A stretch of 64,000 nt of DNA from Batkoa obscura (Eukaryota): NCBI GenBank assembly GCA_030770535.1, contig JASVEC010000012.1, forward strand, positions 620,001 through 684,000, written 5' to 3'. Shown one piece after another: positions 2,828-15,566 of the stretch. Position 1 is the first letter of the stretch, and every line of letters begins with the position of its first letter. A program made the translations under genes and the position numbers. Below the pieces are notes generated by a model. The model saw only the letters and a program-made list of their open reading frames with translations. It had not been told where the DNA came from and made no database searches.

Positions 2828-5800
2828 ATGGAGCTTGAAAACCGAAGGAAAGAAGAAGAAAGTAACGAAACTTTAATGAAAAATAATGAAACTGAAAAAC
2901 CCAGTGAACCAGTCTTGGAGGTCACTGATAACACGGTGAAAAAAGAAGATCCTTTAAGCTTAAAAGATAGCAAGATGGAACTTGATTTAAGTCAAGAGAA
3001 AACGACGGATTTAGAAATCAAAACTCAAGTAACTCAAGTTACTGCCCATAAAAAGACAATTGATATCGAAGACAACTGGAAGATAGATTCAACCATTGAA
3101 GACCCAAGGCTAATAAAAAATCGACCAATACGGCTAGTGAACTTTGCATATAAGCAAAGTTATTTGACTTTTTTATCTGAAGTTTGTTTACAAGTAAACT
3201 ACTATTACTCATAATTTAAAAGAACCAAAACTAATCTTAGTTAGCAAGATCAAAACACAATAGGGCCTTTTGAAGCGAGTAGTATATTAGTAACGAATAT
3301 ACCATTGTCTGTATCGTCAGAACAATTGGCTAAAAAATTTGTAAACTTTGGTAATATATTGAAGATTGAAATGCCGCGATGTAACTTCACTTATTCAAGT
3401 CTTGGAGTTGCTAAGATTGTTTATGGCACTGGTTCTTTATTGGATCCTGAAAGTGCTTATTCTGTTAATTTGGCTATTAGTTATCAAAGGCCAATTTTTA
3501 TCGAAGATTCCGAGTTGAAAGTTCGAATGGACCCTAGAGGTGAACTATTTAATAATGAAGTAGAGATACAAAGGGAGAAGATGAGCTCCCATTTTGCTCA
3601 TATTATGAGTGTTAATAAACATCAGATTTTTGAAGACGCAAGGACCCATAGTTCATATAACGAAAATAGTGAAGTCAATTGTAATCAGGACGAAAGTATA
3701 ATAAATACTTCCCGTGTTGAAAGTAATGAGCAAAAACATTCAGCTATATCAGAAACTCAGAATATTGAAGGAAGAACAGTGACTCAAATAGGTGATATAT
3801 TTGAAGAAGAAGTAGAAGCTAATCCAAGTAAAAAAAGTAAAAGCTTAGATGAACAAAGTAGTCACGTAATATCCAATGATATGAAATTACAAGATAACGG
3901 CACAAATATTTTAAAAAATAATCAAGATAACGATATTGACTATCAAACTTGTGGAAATAATAAAAAGAATGGATCAAATGATACGTCGAATGAATCCAGT
4001 ATACCTGCCGAGTCCAAAGAATTTAAAATACATTATGAAAATGGAACTGCAATGACCAAATCATTAACGAATTTCGAAACTGCATCAACTTATTCAGTGG
4101 GATATGACCAAAAAGATACAAATTATAAAGCGTACAAAAACTCACCATTAAAAAATTCATGGAACAATTATAATGATTTACAAAAAAGGGAAGAAGATAG
4201 CAAATATCATGAACAAAATAGTCTAGAAGAAAATGATCTTTATGATAGGAAAAGGTATTTAGATACATATGAGAAAGATAAATTTGAACATCGATTAAGC
4301 CCAGAGTATTCGGGATATAATCAAGAATATAGTGATATTAAATCTAAAAGTCATTTAAATTCACCTTGGAGAAAGGATAGAGAAAATGATCGAAACTCTA
4401 GGTATATAGATAGTTATTCTAATAGATATATAAGAAGAGATGACCGATTGGATAGCCCAAGTTATCCTTACTCAAAAGAGGGATGGAATAATAGGAATAG
4501 AAGATATGATGATGGGTATAACTCACCTTGGCGTAGCAGTCGCCCTAATTTTTATAATTCTTCTAGAAGAGATAATTATGATTATGATAAAAGAAATGAA
4601 TATTGGTCTGAAAGAGCCAATTATAATGAAAAATCAAATGCGGATAGTTATAGGAATGGTAGTTATATGGATTTGAAAAATCAGACCGTGAATAAAGTTG
4701 AAGATTCGGAAGATTCAGAAGAAGTAAGTTTAGCGTTATTTTATTTTAATAAAGTAATTTATAATTTATTAGCCGGATAAAGAACCTGTGGAATATTGTA
4801 TTGCTTTTGATTCTAAATTTTTACCTTTGTTTCTTGCAAAAGAAGCTGATCTAATGGAACATTTCAAAGATTTTTCACCTACACAGGTAAGTAGCATAGC
4901 TAATCCTATTTATGATTATTAATTTATTATGATAGGTAACTAAAGAAAATCGATGTTGGGTAGTGATATTTTCAAATAAAAAGAATGCTAAAAGATGTTC
5001 CAAAAGTGATTTGGCAAAAGGGTTTCTTACTTATCGATTAATTGGAAAATTGCAAAAATTAAATGAATTTCGGAATCCAGAAACGAAATTAAATACAGAA
5101 CAGAAAACAATGAATTTTCATAAAAGATTACCATCTTCTGGATTACCAACATTTAAAAAGATTAGTAATTCTTTAAGAAAGAAAGAGAATGAAGATAATA
5201 AAAGATCGGAATTTAATTCTCCAATAATTAAAAGTAATTCAGATAGTAATAAAATCATAAATGATGGTTTATCTTCAAGCACAAATAATGATGAAGATAA
5301 ATCAGATAATAAATCAATATTAAAAATAATAAAAAAGAATAAAAAAGGGGATTTATATAGTGAAAGTATACTATCACCAAATGACAATATCAAAAGCGAA
5401 TTAAGTCCAAAAAAAAATTTAATAGATAAAGTTAGTAAACGAAAATCAAGTAAAGAAGAAGAGGAGGATATTTCGGATTCTGAATTTGTTGATTTATATA
5501 ATGAAGATGAATTAAATTTCCCTGATTTTGGTGAATTACCCAAAAATTCTACAGGATCAGCTAGAACACAAGGATATTATAAAGTGACCGAAGTCATGAA
5601 AAGATATAAATATCGATTTAGTTTAATGGCAGCCATTCGAGGCCAAGCTTATCGTTTAGGAAAATGGATCCCCTATTCTTCTACCGCCCAAAATTTAGCC
5701 CAACAATTAGAAGATGGAGCTAGTCGAATAGTATTAGCCCGATCAAGTATTCATGATTGGGGTTTATTTGCAGTTGAATTAATTCAAAAAGGGGAATTAG

Positions 5801-6150
5801 TCATTGAATATGTAGGTGAATTGATACGATCTCATTTGGCGGATGTTCGAGAAAAACATTATTTAGCAAATGGGATTGACTCTAGTTACCTTTTTCGAGT
5901 TAATGATATGTATGTTATCGATGCCACTACAAAAGGTAATATTGCTAGATTTATTAATCATTCTTGTACACCGAATTGTTCGGCTAAAATTACCATGGTT
6001 GATGGCAATCTTAGAATCCTCATTTTTGCTAATTCGGATATTAGAAGGGCAGAGGAAATTACATATGATTATCAGTTTCCATTGGAAGATGAAGAGCATA
6101 AAATCAAATGTTTATGTGGTACAGTAAAGTGTAGAGGGTATTTGAATTAA
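2828..6150 (+). CDS. SET1: Histone H3K4 methyltransferase Set1 (COMPASS); about 4 exons
   Basis: ORFs 2828, 3305 and 4963 are joined by GT-AG introns (~3193-3244, ~4724-4772, ~4887-4935). RRM-like segment; N-SET/WIN motif TGSARTQGYYK; SET domain RSSIHDWGLFA...GNIARFINHSCTPNC...EEITYDYQF; post-SET CLCGTVKCRGYLN. Confidence 0.93.
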
Positions 6151-6407
6151 ATTCAAAGTACTAGTTAAGTATGGATTCGTGGAAGAGTTTATAAGTGTGA
6201 GTATTTTTTTGTTATTGAGAGGGCTAATTTTTGAATGAAATATTTTTAATAAATAAAATTCTATTATTTTAAAATATTTACTGATAAATTTTTTAAAATA
6301 ATGAGTATTCTTTAACAAGAATTAAAATTTTAAGTTGAATTTCCAAACATTCAAAAAAATACTTAAATTTAAAAGCCTTCAATTTTTTAATTTTTTATCG
6401 TTGTAAA

Positions 6408-7795
6408 ATGAGTCATCCAAATAAACCAGTACCTACCCCATTTGAAGAAAGTATAGATCAAAAACAATTCAAAGAAAGTCAAGAACAAGAAGAAGAATAT
6501 GTTCATAAAGTATATAATGATATTGCATCTCATTTTTCTAATACACGATATAAGGTAAGAAAGTTAATAATTGTATAAAATAAAGATGAGAACAAATAAA
6601 AACAAGGACATATAGTAACATATAATAACATATAATAACATATAATAACATATAATAACATATAATAATATATAATAATATATAATAACATAATATAAAA
6701 TAATATAAATAATGAACAAAAAAGTAAATAAGAAAATTAAGTTCAATTAAGTTCAATTGACGAATTGATTTTTTTAATTAATATAAATTAATAGCCTTGG
6801 CCTATTATTGAAAGATTTTTAAATTCTTTACCAGAATACTCCATAGGAGCGGATATTGGATGTGGTAATGGAAAATACATGGGAGTGAATAAAAAATTAA
6901 TAGTTATGGGAAGTGATAGGTAAGTTACAATTAATTTTTATTGAATATTTAAATATTATTTGTTTGTTTTAAAAAAAAGTGAAGAGTTAAGATAAAAATT
7001 AGATGTTGAGAATAGAAAATAGAAAAACTCTAGAAAATTAATAATATTTAATTGAATTTTAATTTTATTTAGGAGTTCCAATCTCATTGAAATCTGCTCT
7101 AAACGAGGCTTTGAAGCTTTAGTAGCTGATAATTTAACTCTTCCATACAGAGATAATGCATTTGTAAGTTGAAATTTACATTATTTTATTATTATTTTAT
7201 TTTTTATTTTTTATGCTATGGTTATTATTATTTAATTAACAAAGTAATCTCAAGTATGTTAATTATTCAATTCTTTTTTAAAATTTAGGATTTTTGTATC
7301 TCAGTAGCAGTGATTCATCATTTAACTACTAATGAACGTAGGAAAAAAGCAGTACAGGTAAAAGAAAAGAGATGGAAGAGGATTTTATAGATAATTTGAA
7401 TTAACGAAATTTTCATAATAATATAGGAATTGATAAGGATTATTAAACCAGGTGGTAAATTATTAGTTTATGTTTGGGCCTTAGAACAAAAGGTAAGAAT
7501 TAATATTAATATTATAATAATTAATAATTTAATTTATTTTCTATTAATATTTTTTATTTAAATTATTTAGAGTCGAAGAGATTTTGATCCTAATGTTCAA
7601 GATGTTTTAGTGCCTTGGGTATTAAATAAATCATTTACTCAAGATAATGAAGATAAAGTTTATCAAAGATATTATCATTTATTTAAACAAGGTGAATTAG
7701 AAGAATTAGTTTTATCAACAGATAATAAACTTCAAATGGTCAATAATGGTTATGATAAAGATAATTGGTATATTGAAATTGTTAAACAAGAATAA
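6408..7795 (+). CDS. TRM9: tRNA (carboxymethyluridine-34) methyltransferase, Trm9/ALKBH8-like; multi-exon
   Basis: Spliced translation: [31 protein letters not shown]...[11 protein letters not shown]...[12 protein letters not shown]...DNLTLPYR...|[12 protein letters not shown]...|[21 protein letters not shown]...DVLVPW...[16 protein letters not shown]...YDKDNWY. Confidence 0.92.
6611..6692 (+). repeat. Minisatellite (TATAATAACA)n in TRM9 intron 1
   Basis: About 8 tandem 10-bp units with minor variants; explains spurious ORFs 6538..6756 and 6564..6746. Confidence 0.9.
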
Positions 7796-7826
7796 AATAA
7801 AATAAAATAAAATAAAATAAAATAAA
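7791..7826 (+). repeat. (AAATA)n microsatellite
   Basis: About 7 tandem pentamer units immediately after the TRM9 stop. Confidence 0.85.
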
Positions 7827-7876
7827 AAATATATACATATATTATAATTGAATTTTATTTGAAATAAATAATTTAT

Positions 7877-10800
7877 TTACTCTGATTTAATTAAAATATA
7901 ATAATTCACATGAACAATAGGTAAATGAGATTTAAAATCTTCATCTCCATTTTCCAATTTATCAGGTGATAATTTCCAACCTTCTGGTACACAAACAATA
8001 AATTCTTTTAATTTTAATTTCAATTCAAAATTTCTAATAATATCTTCTAATACTAATAAACTTAATGGTATTAATCGATTCCCATTTTTCTTATGTAATC
8101 GATAATCTTGTATACCAATAATAAACAAACCATTTTCATCTAATCGATCATAATTTTCTCTTATTATTTGTAATATTGTTTTTCTTAAATATGGGATTGT
8201 AAATGAAGCTAATAAATAATTAGGTATATGAGAAACATAAATTAGTCCTAATAAATTGTGTTCATTTGGTGGTAAAGTCATCATAAAATCATAATGATTA
8301 ATATCATCATTAGTAGTATCATTGATATCAATATTTAAACCTAATTTTAACATTATTTGATTATTTTGTTTTATTTGATTTAATCTTTTTCTTTCATATT
8401 CATTAATTTCTTGTTTTTTATTAAAATTATTAACTTTAGGTGGTGATATCATTTCTGATTTTTGTTCATAAATAAAATTCAATTTAGCTTCTTCCCAATT
8501 TTTATTTATTGGTGCAAATCTTTCAATCATTCTAGACTGTATTAATTTTTCAAAGGAATAAATTTCTGATGTTTCAAATAGCCATACTGTGCCCATAATA
8601 TTTTCTTTACGATTAATTGGATAATTAGGTACTCCGTGAGCAATTAGTTCTACTTTAATTATACCTTTACCATATAATACATCTTCTGGTGATAATAAAA
8701 TAGCTGTTACTCGTTTTGATACTTCTTTTTTTCTTTTTCTAAATATAGCAATATATTCATGAGTTAAGATTAAAAAATCAAATTTTTCTGAAAGATAAGT
8801 TCCTAAACCATACATTTGACATTGTCGTTGTCTTTTTAGTATTAATTCTTCTAATTCAAATCCAATATTCATATAACTTCTTATTGTTTGATAACCAACT
8901 GGTATATAAAAACATTTACTTCGATTATCCCCAATACCTAATGTTAATCTACCGTTTATTTTTAATAATTTCCATGATTCTTTTGCTACTAATGACATTT
9001 GATTTTGAAATTCTAATTCATTACTAATTCTTGATAAATCTCCACTTAAATTAGTTGAGTATTGTACACAATCTTTATAAGGTGGATGAGATAATATATG
9101 ATCAAATTTACATTCATTAATCTTATTTAAATTACTTAAATTTCTTGCATCTCCTTGTAATATTAATGGTCTTAAACTAACATCCATTTTCAAACTAGGT
9201 GGTAATGCAAAACTACAATTCTTTTGACTTAAAGTTATAGCTACTGGATTTATATCTACACCAATACATCTATTATAATGTAATATTAATAAAAGTTATT
9301 TATCTATTATTTATATAGTATATTCTTACTTTCTACCATTTAAAAAACATTCAATAGCATCTGTACCTCTACCTAAAAAATTAGATAAAACAAGTGCTCC
9401 AGGCTTAGTATATTTTAATAACGATCTTCGTACTGTTTGTGCTAACCAAGTACCATGATAATCTGAAGCAGAATGAGAAGCCCCTAAATAGAAAAATAAT
9501 TAATTAAAATAATAATATATAATATAATTATAATATTCTTTACATCTTGGAGCTCTTCCAGGTATATCTAAATAAGTTGAATATAAATTTAAAGAATATC
9601 TTTGATTTTCTTTTGGTCCATAAGAATCCAATAGTTTAGCTTGATTATTATCTAAAGGCAAATGATAATGATCATACATTGTTCTTGTGTTATAAGGTAA
9701 ATGAGTATACTCTTCTGTATTTGTATTATATTGATTAGATTGTTTTTTATCTTGTTTTCCTTTATTTTTCTTTGATAATCTTTTTTTTCTTAATTTTCCT
9801 TTTTCTCCAGAACTAAAACATTGATGACATAATAAAACTCCATAATAACCTATCAAAGTGTTAATATCTTGTTGCTTATTATAATTTATTTAAATTACTT
9901 TTTCTCCAAACTTTAGATTTTTCACACCAACAGTAAGCACATTGTAATTTTTTTCTACCTTTTTTTAAATTTCTTATTTCTTGTTCATCATTTCTTTTTT
10001 CTATTAAATAAACAAAACATTAACAATAGTTCATTTGATTTTTATAAAACATTTACTTCTGATTGGTATACTAACTTTAGAACGCGTAGATGTTAATAAC
10101 ATTCGATCTTGATCTATAAAATAACAGATAGCCAGTAAACTATATATGCTTTAAGTTAAATTAAAATTTTTACCTGTGATTACAAAGGATTCTTTATCGT
10201 GGTTATGTTCCACTAATTCAAATCGATGATGATAACACTAAAATATTTTAATCAAAAACATAATTATATATAATAAATAAACTCCTACCAAAGAACAAAG
10301 ATCATAAGAAGAAAAAGTAGCTTGCTTCAAACAAGTAAAACAAGTAAACCAACTATATTTTAATTTATCATTATTAAGTATATCAATTTCTTCAGTAACT
10401 AAATATAAATTAATAAAGATATTATTAATATGTTAATAATTTAAAACTTACTTATTTCTTCCTCATTAGTATCAATATCAACAATTTTTTCAATTGGACT
10501 ATCATCATCAATAATAATATCACTATCTTGATGTGGATCTAAAGTACAGCTTTCGATATCTAACTTATCATCCTCATCGTCTTCATCTTCTTCAATTTCA
10601 ATCAATGGATCTTCAATTTCAATTGTATGTAAATTATTAATTGAAAACTCAGTTGCTTTTTCCATTTCGAAAGAATCTTCTAAATCCATTTCTTTAGCTT
10701 TAGTTGATTTTATGTTTAATGGTGAATTATCGCTATCTGGGCCTTCGATATTGTTTTGAAAACTATTATTATTGCCATTTCTATTATCAACATTATCTGG

Positions 10801-13406
10801 AATATTATTGCCACCCTCATTCATAATCTCAATTTCATTAAGAGTATTATTATTGGGCAAACAATATTTTTCATTCATATTATTTAGATTCACATTTGAT
10901 TCTTCATTTTCATTTTGAACACCATTGGTATTAACAACATGATTTGTTTCCAAGTCTAACTGCGAGATATCTTGAACAACACTCTTTATCTCAATTTGAT
11001 TCTCACAAATACCATTTTCCTTTGCACTTAAATCTGATTTTTTATTCACTTTACTCTCCGCGCCACAATCGATTTCTTTAAACCCACTCAAATCCCTTTC
11101 AAACCAATCTGGAATATTTAAACATGATACATCCGTTAAACTCGATACTGGACTTGACATTAAAAATGTTTGATCTCCTATTTCGGATATTGAAGTCAAA
11201 GAAGATAAATCAGAAAAGGTATCTAATCTAAAGTGATCTATTTTCATCTCTGGTTCTTCTTCAATATTAACTATTTCTTCTAATTTTTGTTTCATCATTT
11301 CATCGTATTGAAGTTTAAATTCTTTTTGCATTTCTTTTGTCAATACAGGTACCCCTTGATCATTATATTCTAATTTCGGATCCAGGGGAAGAGGAAGATG
11401 ACAAAGATCACAATGGAAATATTCATTAAAGGCATCTTTTTCATAATACAAGCTCTCATGATATGGACAAAAGAAGACTACGCCTTTTGAAAATTGTTGC
11501 ACAGATTTTCCAGTACATTTTAAATGATAATATTTGCTACAATCATCTTTGGTACATCCTATCATTGCCCCTATCCCTCTACATTTACTACATTTATGTT
11601 TATTGCTGTCCCTTACAGATCGTGAGATGTTATAGATATCTGACTGAGATGGGTTTTTTATACTTGGATTTATTCCAAGTACTAGTACTTGACCAACAAA
11701 TTTAGCACAATTGACATGACACCAAAATAAATCCAAAAAAAAGTTGGGGATATTGATTAAAGATTCAAATGGATTTAAACTATGAATTCCCTTCTTTGGT
11801 CGCCCTCTTTTATTTTGCGGTTTTAATAAATCATGGATTTCTTTGGCCCAAACTTCACCAAAATAATACTTTAATGTTGAATAACTCAATTCCCCATTTT
11901 GTAATCTAGCAGCATATTTTTGCCACATTTTAGGTCCTGGTTTGAGGATAAATGGTTTTTTAACATCAAATAATTCCCCAGTAATTTCTGTATGACTATC
12001 CGTATCATGACAAAACACACATGTAATCTTTCTTGGCAAACTTCGCTTATTAAATAATGGAAAATAACGATAGACACCAGGTATTGTAGGTACGCTTTTT
12101 TTAATTTCTTTTTTATATCTCAAAGTTAAAGAAGGTGGTAATTTATTCCTTACTTTATCTGTTTGGGCTATCAATTTCATCTCTTTATCATTCCCATCTT
12201 CTACTACCAATGGAAATATTGCATCCTGATCATAACTAACAATCAACTGAGTACCAGAAGGTTCATTTGAATTTGAATTGATAGTATGAAAGTAACCAAT
12301 TTTACCCCCTACTTTTTTACGGGAATAGGAGTTTACATTGTGCTCAGTGATTAAACATTCGACAGCAAAAGATAATCTTGGATGTTCATGTTTTTTTGGA
12401 AATTTTTTCAAGTAGCAGTTAGGGCATAAATCGAAGTCTTCTCCACCTTCAGTTAGAGTTGAAGATTTGCAGTCCAAGCAGTAGTATCGGTACTGTTCGA
12501 TGAATGAATTACATTCGTTGCAGTATAATGTCCAACCATCGCTTCGTGAGATGGTGCTGTTCAATGGGAGGTTTGAAACGTTTTGAATGGAGATTGGATC
12601 TTCCAGGATGATAGGTTCTTCGAATTTAGTTTCCCTTTTAATGTGTTTAGTTGAAGTACTTGGTTGATTGTCTACTTGTAAAAGTTTACGTGGTCTACCA
12701 CGGTCTTTTTTAGGTAAGGTAAAAGCTTTTTTAAACTCCTTTATGATTTTTTTGGGTTGGTTTGTTGCTTTTGGCGGCATCACTAAAAAAATTATCAGTT
12801 AATACCTACAAGTTTAAGCACAATAAAACCTACTTTTACCACTAGAACCATTCTCAAGCCTCTTAGTCCCCTCCACGCCATTAAAGCTTAATGGTTTAAC
12901 CCTATTTTGATCTGTTCTTATCCACTCATTCCTATAGCTCGCTTCATTTTTATATTTGATACAAACCTTATCATTTTCTTGTTTAATAATAATAGCTTCA
13001 CACCATATGCCTTTTCGATCTAGTACTAATACTTCGTCATCTATGTTGTAAGTTATTACTACTCCAGTATCGATTTCATGATTCTCAATTTCCTTCAAAG
13101 CTTCTTTTTTAGCCCCATTTGATACCTTTGAAGTTATAGAATGTTTCTTGTGAACTAAGAATGTATTAGTAAGTGTAAATGAAAAATTAAAACTATTTAG
13201 CTGTTACCTTTCCCATTCTCTACCGAATTGTGAATTTTCTTTGGTCTCCCTCTACCATCTTTTTTTATCACTTTCTCTTCAGGTAACGGACTATCTTCTA
13301 AAGAGCATACTCTCTTAAGTATATTCCTGGTAATATAATTACCAATGATCAATGGCTTTTCTTCTTTCTTTTTTATATCTTTTACCGGACACATATTGTC
13401 TTTCAT
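7877..13406 (-). CDS. Multidomain chromatin-reader / N6-adenine- or N4-cytosine-type amino-methyltransferase fusion protein (about 10 exons, ~1,700 aa)
   Basis: Exons join in frame through short GT-AG introns: AT-hook GRGRPKK; Tudor/chromo-like barrel (VLVLDRKGIWCEAII...YRNEWI); ZZ finger (CNEC...CLDC...DFDLCPNC...HEH); ePHD (CVFC...HVNC...CSKC...C..DDC..YYHLKC...CPYH); second ZZ; GATA finger CAYC-x17-CHQC; MTase motif I SNFLGRGT, GVDIN, GDAR and motif IV SHPPY; degenerate second MTase copy at the C-terminus. Confidence 0.85.
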
Positions 13407-13906
13407 TTGCAAAATCCAGTGCTAATTGCTGTAATACTGCTAGTTCGCTAATACTATATATTGTTGCTATTTTTGTTAATGAAATAGAAATAAAAATAAA
13501 AATAAAAATAAAATAGGGGTTGTTAGAATGAAAACATTTTAGTTTTTTTATTGGAACTTGAATTTTTGATGACAACGAAATCAAACCGGTTTTAGTTTAT
13601 GGCTTGAATTTTTTATCAGTGATTTTCTTGATTTTTCATTTATAATTTCTGATGAAATTAAGTTTTTAATTTTTGTTTAAATACTAAATAAGCTAATTTT
13701 TAGAAAATTAGGTCAAAGTTTAAAAAACCAAGTTTTATTAAAATTTAATCGTAAATTTCAGCCTACCTCAAAGCCTAAAAACTTGTTCAAATCACTCTTA
13801 CAAAAACGACTTCCCACATCCCAACCAGAAAAATTATATATAACCTCAAATAAATAAAAATTTATTAATAAAAAAAGCTACTCATCCTCAAACTGTACAT
13901 TCTTCA

Positions 13907-15566
13907 TTATTCTCCAGCATATAGCTCAACCCTATCTGCAGGTGGATGTTTACTATCGCCTAAATAACCTCTAGCAATATCCAAATCCTCCTGCTCTGTC
14001 ATTAAAATAAAGTCATCGTCTTCATCCCTATATCTTAGCCTTAATTTACTATTATTAAACTTTTTTTGTACACGATCTAAAAGCTTTTCAAATTTTACAT
14101 CCGTTTTCATTAACAATACACATGTCTCATTATAATGCACTTTCACTTTAAGCTATTTAAAAAAGAATTAAAGCTTAAAATAACTTGATTCATATTAAAA
14201 TTTTACCTGGCCAGGAGGCAATGGCAATTTAGGTATCGAAGGTTTGATCATAGCGGGGTGATTGATATATGGCTGGTTCACCATCTGTGTATAAAAATTA
14301 GCTGGAGTACCTAAAGCACCTATTTGATGATTTTGATTCGTCAGAATCACTGCACTATGTTTATTAGTTTTATTGTTAGATGCATTGGTTGGGCTTCCTG
14401 GTGCACTCGACCCTGTAGAGGGTGGGGTAGGCAACTTGATCTTCCTTGACTCCCTTTTTTTCCTTTCTGCGTGTAATCGTTTCTTCTCTGATAATACTGC
14501 ATCGTCTATGCTCTTCAATTTAACTGGTGGCTTTTCAGGAATTTCTACTGGTATTATTTGAGGCATTGGACTACTGTTACCAGCATTCTATTATATTTAA
14601 GGTTAAAAAATTATCCTATTATCACTTTTATTATTATTTACCTCTTTTGCCTGCTTACCAGCAAACCCAGTAAAACTATCCTTATCATCTTGAGCCCCGA
14701 TGACCTTCGATTTACCCAAATAATCTACTTTTTTAGTGTTTTTAGACTTGGTTTCGGCTGGTCGGAAGATGGAGCCTTTTGGTAATAGTATTGGCTCACA
14801 TTCCTTAATAAATTTAATAAACTGGTTCAGTACGTGATTGACTTATTAGTTTACCTTGCCATCTTTTTTGACTGCTTTTGGGATAATAGCGCTATGCGAA
14901 TCAAGTTGCTTATTCACCATTGCATACATAATATCCTCTTTAAATTTAGCCTTATTTTCCAAACGAGAGTAACACAAGGATCGATTGTACGCTACTTCAC
15001 ATGAGTATAAGGTGTGGTCTAACCCCAATTGAGCATAATTGATCAACAGGTTACCCCTAAGGTACTTTAATATATGATTAGTTATAAGATGAAGTTTTTA
15101 AAATGTGAATTACTTGAAAAGATTTATCATAGTCTTCAATTGCTTCTTCATAACTTTCTAATTTAAAACGAGCATTTCCTTTACAATAATGACCAATGGC
15201 TGAGTATTGATCAATACCTACTGCGGTTTCAAACGATTTTAACTAAGGTATTAGAGTTAGTATTGTATTTTTTAGTTTATAGTAGTGAGCACTTACTGAG
15301 TTTTCAATGTCATTCATAGCGTCATACACCAACCCTATATTTAACGCCACCCTAAAAGATTCGGGCAAATCCTAGTTTACTATTAGTAAAAGCGGTAAAG
15401 CCTATATGATGTTGTTTACTTGAAAGATGGATAACGCTTCTAAATAATTTTCTTCTTCAAAGCATTTTACTGCTTCTTGCCACTGCTCAATCTCTACCTA
15501 GAAAATTTTCAAATCGTAAGTTGTTGTGGTATATTATCACTAATAACGACTTACTTTTAAAGCCAT
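13907..15566 (-). CDS. noxR: NADPH oxidase regulator NoxR (p67phox-like; TPR + PB1)
   Basis: Spliced N-terminus MALK|VEIEQWQEAVNAFEEENYLEALSIFQ...TPR helices...YLRGNLLINYAQLGLDHTLYSCEVAYNRSLC; C-terminal PB1 domain KVKVHY...LRYRDEDDDFILMTEQEDLDIA. Confidence 0.85.

Follow-up and report, generated by a model that had tools for sequence, protein, structure and literature searches.

A spliced gene joining predicted chromatin readers to a tandem methyltransferase in Batkoa obscura, a lineage variant of a known fungal family

Does a series of short open reading frames on contig JASVEC010000012.1 of Batkoa obscura (assembly GCA_030770535.1) encode a single protein in which chromatin readers are joined to an amino-methyltransferase, and what would such a protein methylate? 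The frames lie on the minus strand of the 64,000-nucleotide stretch at positions 620,001 to 684,000 of the contig (hereafter the window, in whose own numbering all positions are given). The observations presented below establish one real spliced gene of ten exons, and on its motifs and domain order it is a new member of the Group-1 Clade 4 fungal N6-methyltransferases of Iyer et al. 2016. The architecture of that clade was described computationally and has been in print since 2015-2016 (Iyer, Zhang, Aravind, PMC4738411; papers are cited by PMC number throughout for the portions of their text accessible to us), as the initial annotation of the locus had noted for reader-methyltransferase fusions. 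The gene in this window represents a variant within one lineage rather than a novel system, and the present additions are transcript support, the tandem relatives in prokaryotes and two lineage-specific changes. With regard to function, the reading we favour, and to which we give an even chance, is that of a chromatin-targeted DNA amino-methyltransferase whose product would be a sparse mark, probably N6-methyladenine (6mA).

A single spliced gene

The gene runs from 13406 to 7877, its ten exons being joined in a single frame across nine GT-AG introns of 49-60 nt (Table 1); the 64-kb window has a GC content of 22-35% and short introns. The joined coding sequence of 5,037 nt has its sole stop at the end, and specifies a product of 1,678 amino acids (aa) from ATG 13406, or of 1,674 aa from ATG 13394, which is the start of the closest homolog. 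Splice evidence was drawn from contigs assembled in 4 of 8 runs (three studies), with the caveats that the RNA label of the runs is a guess and that a contig is not equivalent to one molecule. Eight of the nine introns are visible as joints in these contigs, and the ninth (9543-9484), which lies inside a repeat skipped by the aligner, is seen where pieces of two contigs abut. A contig of 4,168 nt covers 13444-8803, crossing all nine introns and linking the AT-hooks to motif IV of the methyltransferase (MTase), and a second covers 10744-7870. The donor of intron 2 is at 12833 according to the spliced contigs, 12839 being the alternative from the sequence alone.

A homolog search among longer proteins with the last exon as query yielded 116 matches from 5,755 candidates. 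The closest, an annotated protein of Neoconidiobolus thromboides (1,676 aa), aligns end to end with 1547 of 1678 positions identical (92%), which excludes chance assembly of the frame; identity is 99% in the first MTase domain and 84% in an acidic insert. The proposal of the initial annotation that the pieces at 13197, 12814, 10441, 9500 and 7877 form one gene is thus borne out by the ten-exon frame, the spliced contigs and the full-length homolog, and the AT-hooks, CAYC/CHQC, SNFLGRGT and SHPPY that it had located were all re-found in the translated model. It had also named separate reader and MTase transcripts as an outcome that would refute the fusion; a spliced contig bridges both parts. 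The view that readers and MTase are separate genes, or that the fusion is a modelling artefact, can appeal to the assembled nature of the contigs and the guessed RNA label, but is rejected as scarcely credible in light of the single spliced contig from the AT-hooks through motif IV, the full-length homolog and the joint occurrence of ePHD and MTase Pfam matches in most of the 116 long homologs. As a separate observation, the gene occurs in each of the runs X1 and X2 as two spliced forms of comparable depth (window 7700-13600), one matching the window exactly and the other about 9% divergent over 12422-12782; these may reflect a hybrid, a heterokaryon, a mixed sample or a paralog.

The domain order of the product is AT-hook, Tudor/chromo-like barrel, AT-hook, ZZ finger, extended PHD (ePHD) with a third AT-hook inside it, a second ZZ finger, GATA-like finger, MTase and degenerate MTase. 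The reader domains named initially fare unequally: the ePHD is recovered by Pfam, whereas the barrel, ZZ and GATA assignments draw on ligand residues conserved in a 20-sequence alignment, the GATA-like finger having no Pfam match on this protein. Overlooked at that stage was an acidic insert of 335 aa (24% D/E, 7% K/R) inside the second ZZ finger. Its interpretation as an intron was rejected, the stretch being covered by spliced contigs. The spacing between the CxxC pairs of this finger is 14-23 aa in 91 of the 94 scorable homologs (of 116) and 43 aa in one, as against 118 aa in Massospora and 342 aa in Neoconidiobolus. Further, 90 of the 95 homologs of at least 1,500 aa contain 2-4 barrels, with only one being present here. 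Judging from these alignments, the split second ZZ and the single barrel are lineage features, newly described here.

The gene is also found in Mucor lusitanicus and Rhizopus microsporus (P0066, P0010), the M. lusitanicus orthologue being MUCCIDRAFT_114945, in Glomeromycota and in chytrids, and all named eukaryotic matches are from early-diverging fungi or Paramicrosporidium, the unnamed matches being unplaceable. The Paramicrosporidium (Rozellomycota) members P0157, P0142 and P0149 have the ZZ, ePHD and HPPY intact, and would trace the fusion back to the fungal root or close to it.

The tandem methyltransferase and its prokaryotic relatives

The initial assignment of the catalytic domain to the exocyclic amino-methyltransferases stands, being supported by the N6_N4_Mtase Pfam match in the N. 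thromboides homolog (E 1.2e-15) and by the conserved motifs. The PF01555 match is split, its two halves being swapped and motif I preceding motif IV. HPPY is present in 117 of 117 aligned rows, GIGDNR in 116 of 116 and the motif II Asp in 115 of 116, the family having kept its catalytic motifs invariant from chytrids to Mucorales. The description of the His in HPPY as non-canonical was overstated, since motif IV is defined as [DNSH]PP[YFW] (Iyer et al., PMC4738411), and this form is also the prevalent one in prokaryotic relatives (see below). The last 240 residues, the significance of which was missed initially, echo the MTase pattern without motif I or PPY; from chytrids to Mucorales, domain 2 has lost these motifs in the very proteins in which those of domain 1 are near-invariant. 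Direct comparison of the fungal domains 1 and 2 gives a weak match (HHalign probability 3.5, E 0.012), and the reading of the pair as a duplication is instead drawn from the prokaryotic tandem comparisons below. An AlphaFold model of the tandem MTase region of a homolog, built with 85 sequences, folds both domains as one compact unit (predicted local distance difference test score, pLDDT, 85.6; predicted template-modelling score 0.90), and the model of a construct without motif I is poor (pLDDT 61.7).

The sequence evidence favours affinity with DNA enzymes. The top sequence match in the PDB is TTHA0409, a beta-class putative DNA methylase (E 2.8e-18), which has SPPY and matches most strongly over the base-binding half (44.6 bits), with Trm11 behind it at 1.8e-10; chains named DpnA match at E 3.4e-6, with the order permuted and over the motif-I half alone. 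In a fungal homolog, the PADLOC model of Type II restriction-modification (R-M) MTases is matched at E 1.9e-38, and the Trm11-type TIGR01177 at E 0.012, far under cut-off. The search of NCBIfam with the full-length homolog returned no match.

A search with a prokaryotic relative as the query gave 3,998 matches, the best 120 of which were analysed. Motif IV is HPPY in 100 of these; QPPY, an unusual variant, takes its place in 17. A profile of the 120 matches the fungal domain 1 with E 1.9e-66. Four of them are about 520 aa long, and their C-terminal region is ranked first by a profile of the fungal second domain; the best BLAST match of the fungal domain among the 120 is likewise a tandem protein (43% identity). 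When the fungal and prokaryotic tandems are compared, they align with HHalign probability 100 over 426 columns spanning both domains, the helical insert excepted. From these comparisons we infer that the intact-plus-dead pair predates its acquisition by fungi. The occurrence of such a tandem in prokaryotes is newly described here: the prokaryotic entries in the accessible portion of the paper of Iyer et al. are 318-364 aa long, and others in it may include tandems. A quick, unrooted IQ-TREE analysis of 75 rows (the window, 24 chosen eukaryote-type sequences, 28 of 113 single-domain sequences, and 22 tandems comprising 4 proteins and 18 of 73 loci) places the 25 eukaryote-type rows on one side of a branch with a Shimodaira-Hasegawa-like approximate likelihood-ratio support of 100, and splits the single-domain prokaryotic rows from the fungal-plus-tandem rows with a support of 97. 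As it has no outgroup, the tree shows no donor.

A genome scan uncovered 199 relatives, of which the best 80 loci were kept, some of them ending at contig ends. Nuclease genes are recognisable in 17 of the 80 tandem loci, of the DpnII family in 11 and of the PD-(D/E)XK type in 6 (these are clusters, of which Pfam checks covered 5 and 2 members, respectively). This speaks for DNA as the substrate. A motif scan detected a second, DpnM-like MTase in one of the 11 DpnII-family loci. It may be the tandem enzyme itself that provides protection in its system, in which case it would act on double-stranded DNA rather than in a single-stranded role modelled on DpnA. GATC avoidance, taken without control genomes, is uninformative as a hint of the target: the observed/expected ratio is 0.55 in 7 DpnII loci, 0.33 in 4 loci with a distant DpnII and 0.55 in the remaining 69. 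Additionally, three gene families recur in the tandem loci, mostly directly downstream, in 23, 14 and 14 of the 80 (e.g., L049:2599-3177, L029:1560-2912 and L044:6566-7147); the members sampled match nothing in Pfam or PADLOC, and these families are candidate unrecognised restriction enzymes.

Candidate functions

In the favoured reading, that of a DNA amino-methyltransferase, domain 1 would bind S-adenosylmethionine (SAM), and the target base would stack on the Tyr of HPPY with its amine held by the His and a Pro-Pro carbonyl (a mechanism as in Box 1 of Iyer et al., PMC4738411). The dead copy could serve as a built-in partner subunit, like those of METTL3-METTL14 and of the beta-class dimers, which split recognition and catalysis (PMC7544214). 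The AT-hooks and the GATA-like finger would hold DNA and the barrel, ZZ and ePHD would dock on nucleosomes, the sites being a small set picked by these predicted chromatin- and DNA-binding domains. The resulting methylation would be sparse or short-lived, and would be separate from the bulk 6mA of MTA1c and MetB. The fusion partners, as DNA and chromatin modules, support a DNA substrate.

Several observations weigh against this reading. First, searches with the good structural model, made with domain 1 only, point in the direction opposite to the sequence evidence, the closest solved folds being the tRNA guanine-N2 MTases (Z 18.8-19.7), namely TrmN (Z 19.6, root-mean-square deviation 2.1 over 176 aligned residues), Trm11 (Z 19.4) and Trm14 (Z 18.8); permuted beta-class enzymes may, however, be handicapped in structure aligners. 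These neighbours, along with the naming of several prokaryotic relatives as 'TRM11 family' by NCBI, are compatible with a redirection to RNA, in which the readers would tether the enzyme to transcribed chromatin for N6-methyladenosine or N2-methylguanosine (m2G) formation on nascent or chromatin-bound RNA. Such enzymes are described as having moved to RNA substrates 4-5 times, and a single-strand preference has been proposed for the clade (PMC4738411). On the other side stand the TIGR01177 score, the adjacency of prokaryotic relatives to restriction-type nucleases, and the lack of any Pfam match on this protein to THUMP or another RNA-binding domain. AT-hooks and GATA fingers, moreover, are DNA-binding modules. 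On balance, we regard an RNA substrate as unlikely.

Second, motif I is S-N-F in about 110 of 113 rows, departing from the usual D-P-F; the single barrel lacks the G-W pair found in many homologs and has a reduced aromatic set; 63 of the 80 tandem loci have no recognised nuclease gene, and their commonest downstream genes are unannotated. Third, Mucor loses 70-75% of its 6mA on deletion of metB (Lax et al. 2024, PMC11258239), deletion of mta1 or p1 removes all symmetric 6mA sites, and 6mA deposition in Rhizopus has been assigned to MTA1c alone (PMC12019607). M. lusitanicus and R. microsporus have the gene though MetB and MTA1c explain most of their 6mA, and it is present in Glomeromycota and chytrids, which generally have below 0.3% 6mA. 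As most of the fungal 6mA that has been measured is accounted for by MTA1c and MetB, the protein is unlikely to be the main fungal 6mA writer, and the metB, mta1 and p1 knockouts speak against its being the source of the abundant fungal 6mA. Literature searches, which left most subscription journals uncovered, retrieved no experimental study of any family member.

The altered motif I and the assignment of known 6mA largely to other enzymes could equally be taken to mean that no useful nucleic-acid methylation occurs, the protein acting as a chromatin scaffold, a reader of methylated bases or a protein MTase; indeed, PPY-type folds include protein glutamine MTases (PMC4738411). This is distinctly improbable, given that domain 1 has kept its SAM- and base-binding motifs nearly unchanged over the range in which the same motifs were lost from domain 2.

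The little bulk 6mA left to explain also invites consideration of N4-methylcytosine (4mC) in DNA under chromatin guidance, in a manner like N4CMT of bdelloid rotifers with a separate bacterial source. In addition to the SPPY of TTHA0409 and the strength of that match in the base-binding half, 6mA enzymes have repeatedly given rise to 4mC enzymes (PMC4738411), and N4CMT, a PF01555 enzyme with a chromodomain, supplies a precedent (PMC8885841). However, Ser in motif IV is typical of 4mC enzymes (PMC4738411), and His occupies this position here. Clostridium thermocellum has a single-domain relative beside DpnII and DpnM (PMC4738411), and its methylome has only m6A and m5C motifs (PMC6791906), a weak objection as the locus tag of the relative is unmapped. 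Further, 4mC is unmentioned in the accessible portions of two fungal methylome papers (PMC12019607, PMC8298701). Taken together, 4mC on these terms is rather improbable. A related proposal is that of a third, unreported mark, with a chromatin-guided single-chain pseudo-dimer of R-M origin writing 4mC in DNA, or m2G in DNA or nascent RNA; part of this proposal is that the mark would have gone unnoticed in fungal methylome studies, which scored 6mA and 5-methylcytosine alone. We consider it unlikely.

Returning to the favoured role in sparse DNA methylation, the gene was outside the set deleted in the 2024 Mucor study, to go by the accessible text (PMC11258239), and is a clear remaining candidate for the 25-30% of Mucor 6mA surviving metB deletion, or for an unscored mark. 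The compact prokaryotic tandem relatives offer an easy route to the chemistry of the family.

Table 1. Features of the fusion gene, in window coordinates
Feature	Position	Strand	Basis or remark
Whole gene	7877..13406	-	Open reading frame pieces joined by coordinates; spliced contigs; homolog
Exons 1-5	13406-13208, 13154-12834, 12782-10452, 10398-10289, 10237-10174	-	
Exons 6-10	10113-10057, 10000-9899, 9849-9544, 9483-9330, 9269-7877	-	
AT-hook 1 (GRGRPKK)	13236..13256	-	Sequence
Tudor/chromo-like barrel, single	12892..13050	-	Agenet E 4e-4, below cut-off; alignment
AT-hook 2 (RGRPRK)	12685..12702	-	Sequence
ZZ finger 1	12382..12522	-	Pfam E 0.019, below cut-off; alignment
ePHD: Zn knuckle CVFC and HC5HC2H finger	11458..12021	-	PF13771 E 7.8e-10
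AT-hook 3	11791..11808	-	Between the two ePHD parts
ZZ finger 2, split	10199..11412	-	CDLC 11412-11401; CFTC...DLCSLC...HNH 10342-10199
Acidic insert, 335 aa	10343..11400	-	Inside ZZ finger 2
GATA-like finger, C-x2-C-x17-C-x2-C	9818..9941	-	Split by intron 7; CAYC 9941-9930, CHQC 9829-9818
MTase domain 1, intact-looking, unpermuted	8735..9556	-	Motifs, profile, model
Motif I, SNFLGRGT	9385-9362	-	
Motif II	9262-9245	-	
Motif IV, HPPY	9088-9077	-	SHPPY 9091-9077
GIGDNR	8938-8921	-	
Degenerate MTase copy 2	7898..8593	-	Without glycine-rich motif I, without PPY
Helical insert in copy 2	around 8398-8384	-	Putative KRI domain, by the name used in PMC4738411

On the opposite strand of the window, two genes away, a Set1-like H3K4 methyltransferase with RRM and SET domains is encoded at 2828-6150 (+), its best PDB matches being H3K4 enzymes (E 1e-50); its linkage to the MTase gene is probably due to chance. 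Between them is a Trm9-like tRNA methyltransferase with short exons (6339-7795, +), which is convergent with the MTase gene with about 80 nt between the stops. Upstream, a gene at 13907-15097 (-) ends in a PB1 domain (E 4e-10), and we presume it to be possibly of the NoxR or Cdc24 type.

Comparison with known systems

The closest likeness is to Group-1 Clade 4 (PMC4738411), with which the protein shares the unpermuted SNFLGRG...HPPY core, the ZZ-PHD-PHD-ZZ-GATA-MTase-inactive MTase(KRI) order with chromo domains and AT-hooks, the second, inactive C-terminal MTase with its insert (putatively the KRI domain), and a range confined, among the named eukaryotic matches, to early-diverging fungi and Paramicrosporidium. 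The published list includes a 597-aa fragment from Conidiobolus coronatus as well as RMCBS344292_14260 and MVEG_09762, which are among the matches found here. The protein differs in having one barrel instead of 2-4 and a second ZZ split by the insert, and the DNMT3-like finger is not evident by eye in its N-terminus, where no profile search was made. Iyer et al. inferred single-stranded DNA activity for the clade from DpnA, whereas the nearest prokaryotic architecture found here is a tandem, usually without DpnM. They also placed its prokaryotic relatives in DpnII-type R-M loci beside DpnM (PMC4738411), a point on which the loci covered here are those of the tandem relatives. The prokaryotic HPPY Type II MTases (PADLOC PDLC03376), especially in the tandem form of about 520 aa, have the same HPPY, motif order and colinear pair of domains, but lack the chromatin domains and the helical KRI-type insert, have D-x-F in place of S-N-F in motif I, and are often beside nuclease genes.

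MetB of Mucor, which the initial annotation had brought up as an enzyme linked to 6mA, is comparable as a bacterial-derived amino-MTase of early-diverging fungi; however, MetB is a PF02384 enzyme with an MmeI-like target domain and 6mA at AAACA as its proven product (PMC11258239). As the present protein is PF01555-like, with no Pfam match to PF02384 or PF20466, a link to MetB is wrong and orthology with it is rejected. Membership in the MT-A70/MTA1c group was likewise rejected, there being no PF05063 and no DPPW, and the motif order not being permuted. The Trm11, TrmN and Trm14 enzymes share the fold and motif order of domain 1, but are much weaker sequence matches than the R-M MTases. They carry the THUMP RNA-binding domain, and neither this domain nor a TIGR01177 match above cut-off is found here. 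PF01555 enzymes are unmentioned in the accessible portions of a 2026 review of fungal methylation (PMC13297926), a 2025 survey (PMC12695648) and the Rhizophagus methylome paper (PMC8298701). Outside fungi, N4CMT of bdelloid rotifers is the closest tested functional analogue, being a bacterial PF01555 enzyme fused to a chromatin reader, though with the permuted beta order, SPPY, a single chromodomain and a proven 4mC product (PMC8885841); the placement of motif IV before motif I and the SPPY of such beta-class N4C enzymes are both absent from the present protein, in which motif I comes first and motif IV is HPPY.

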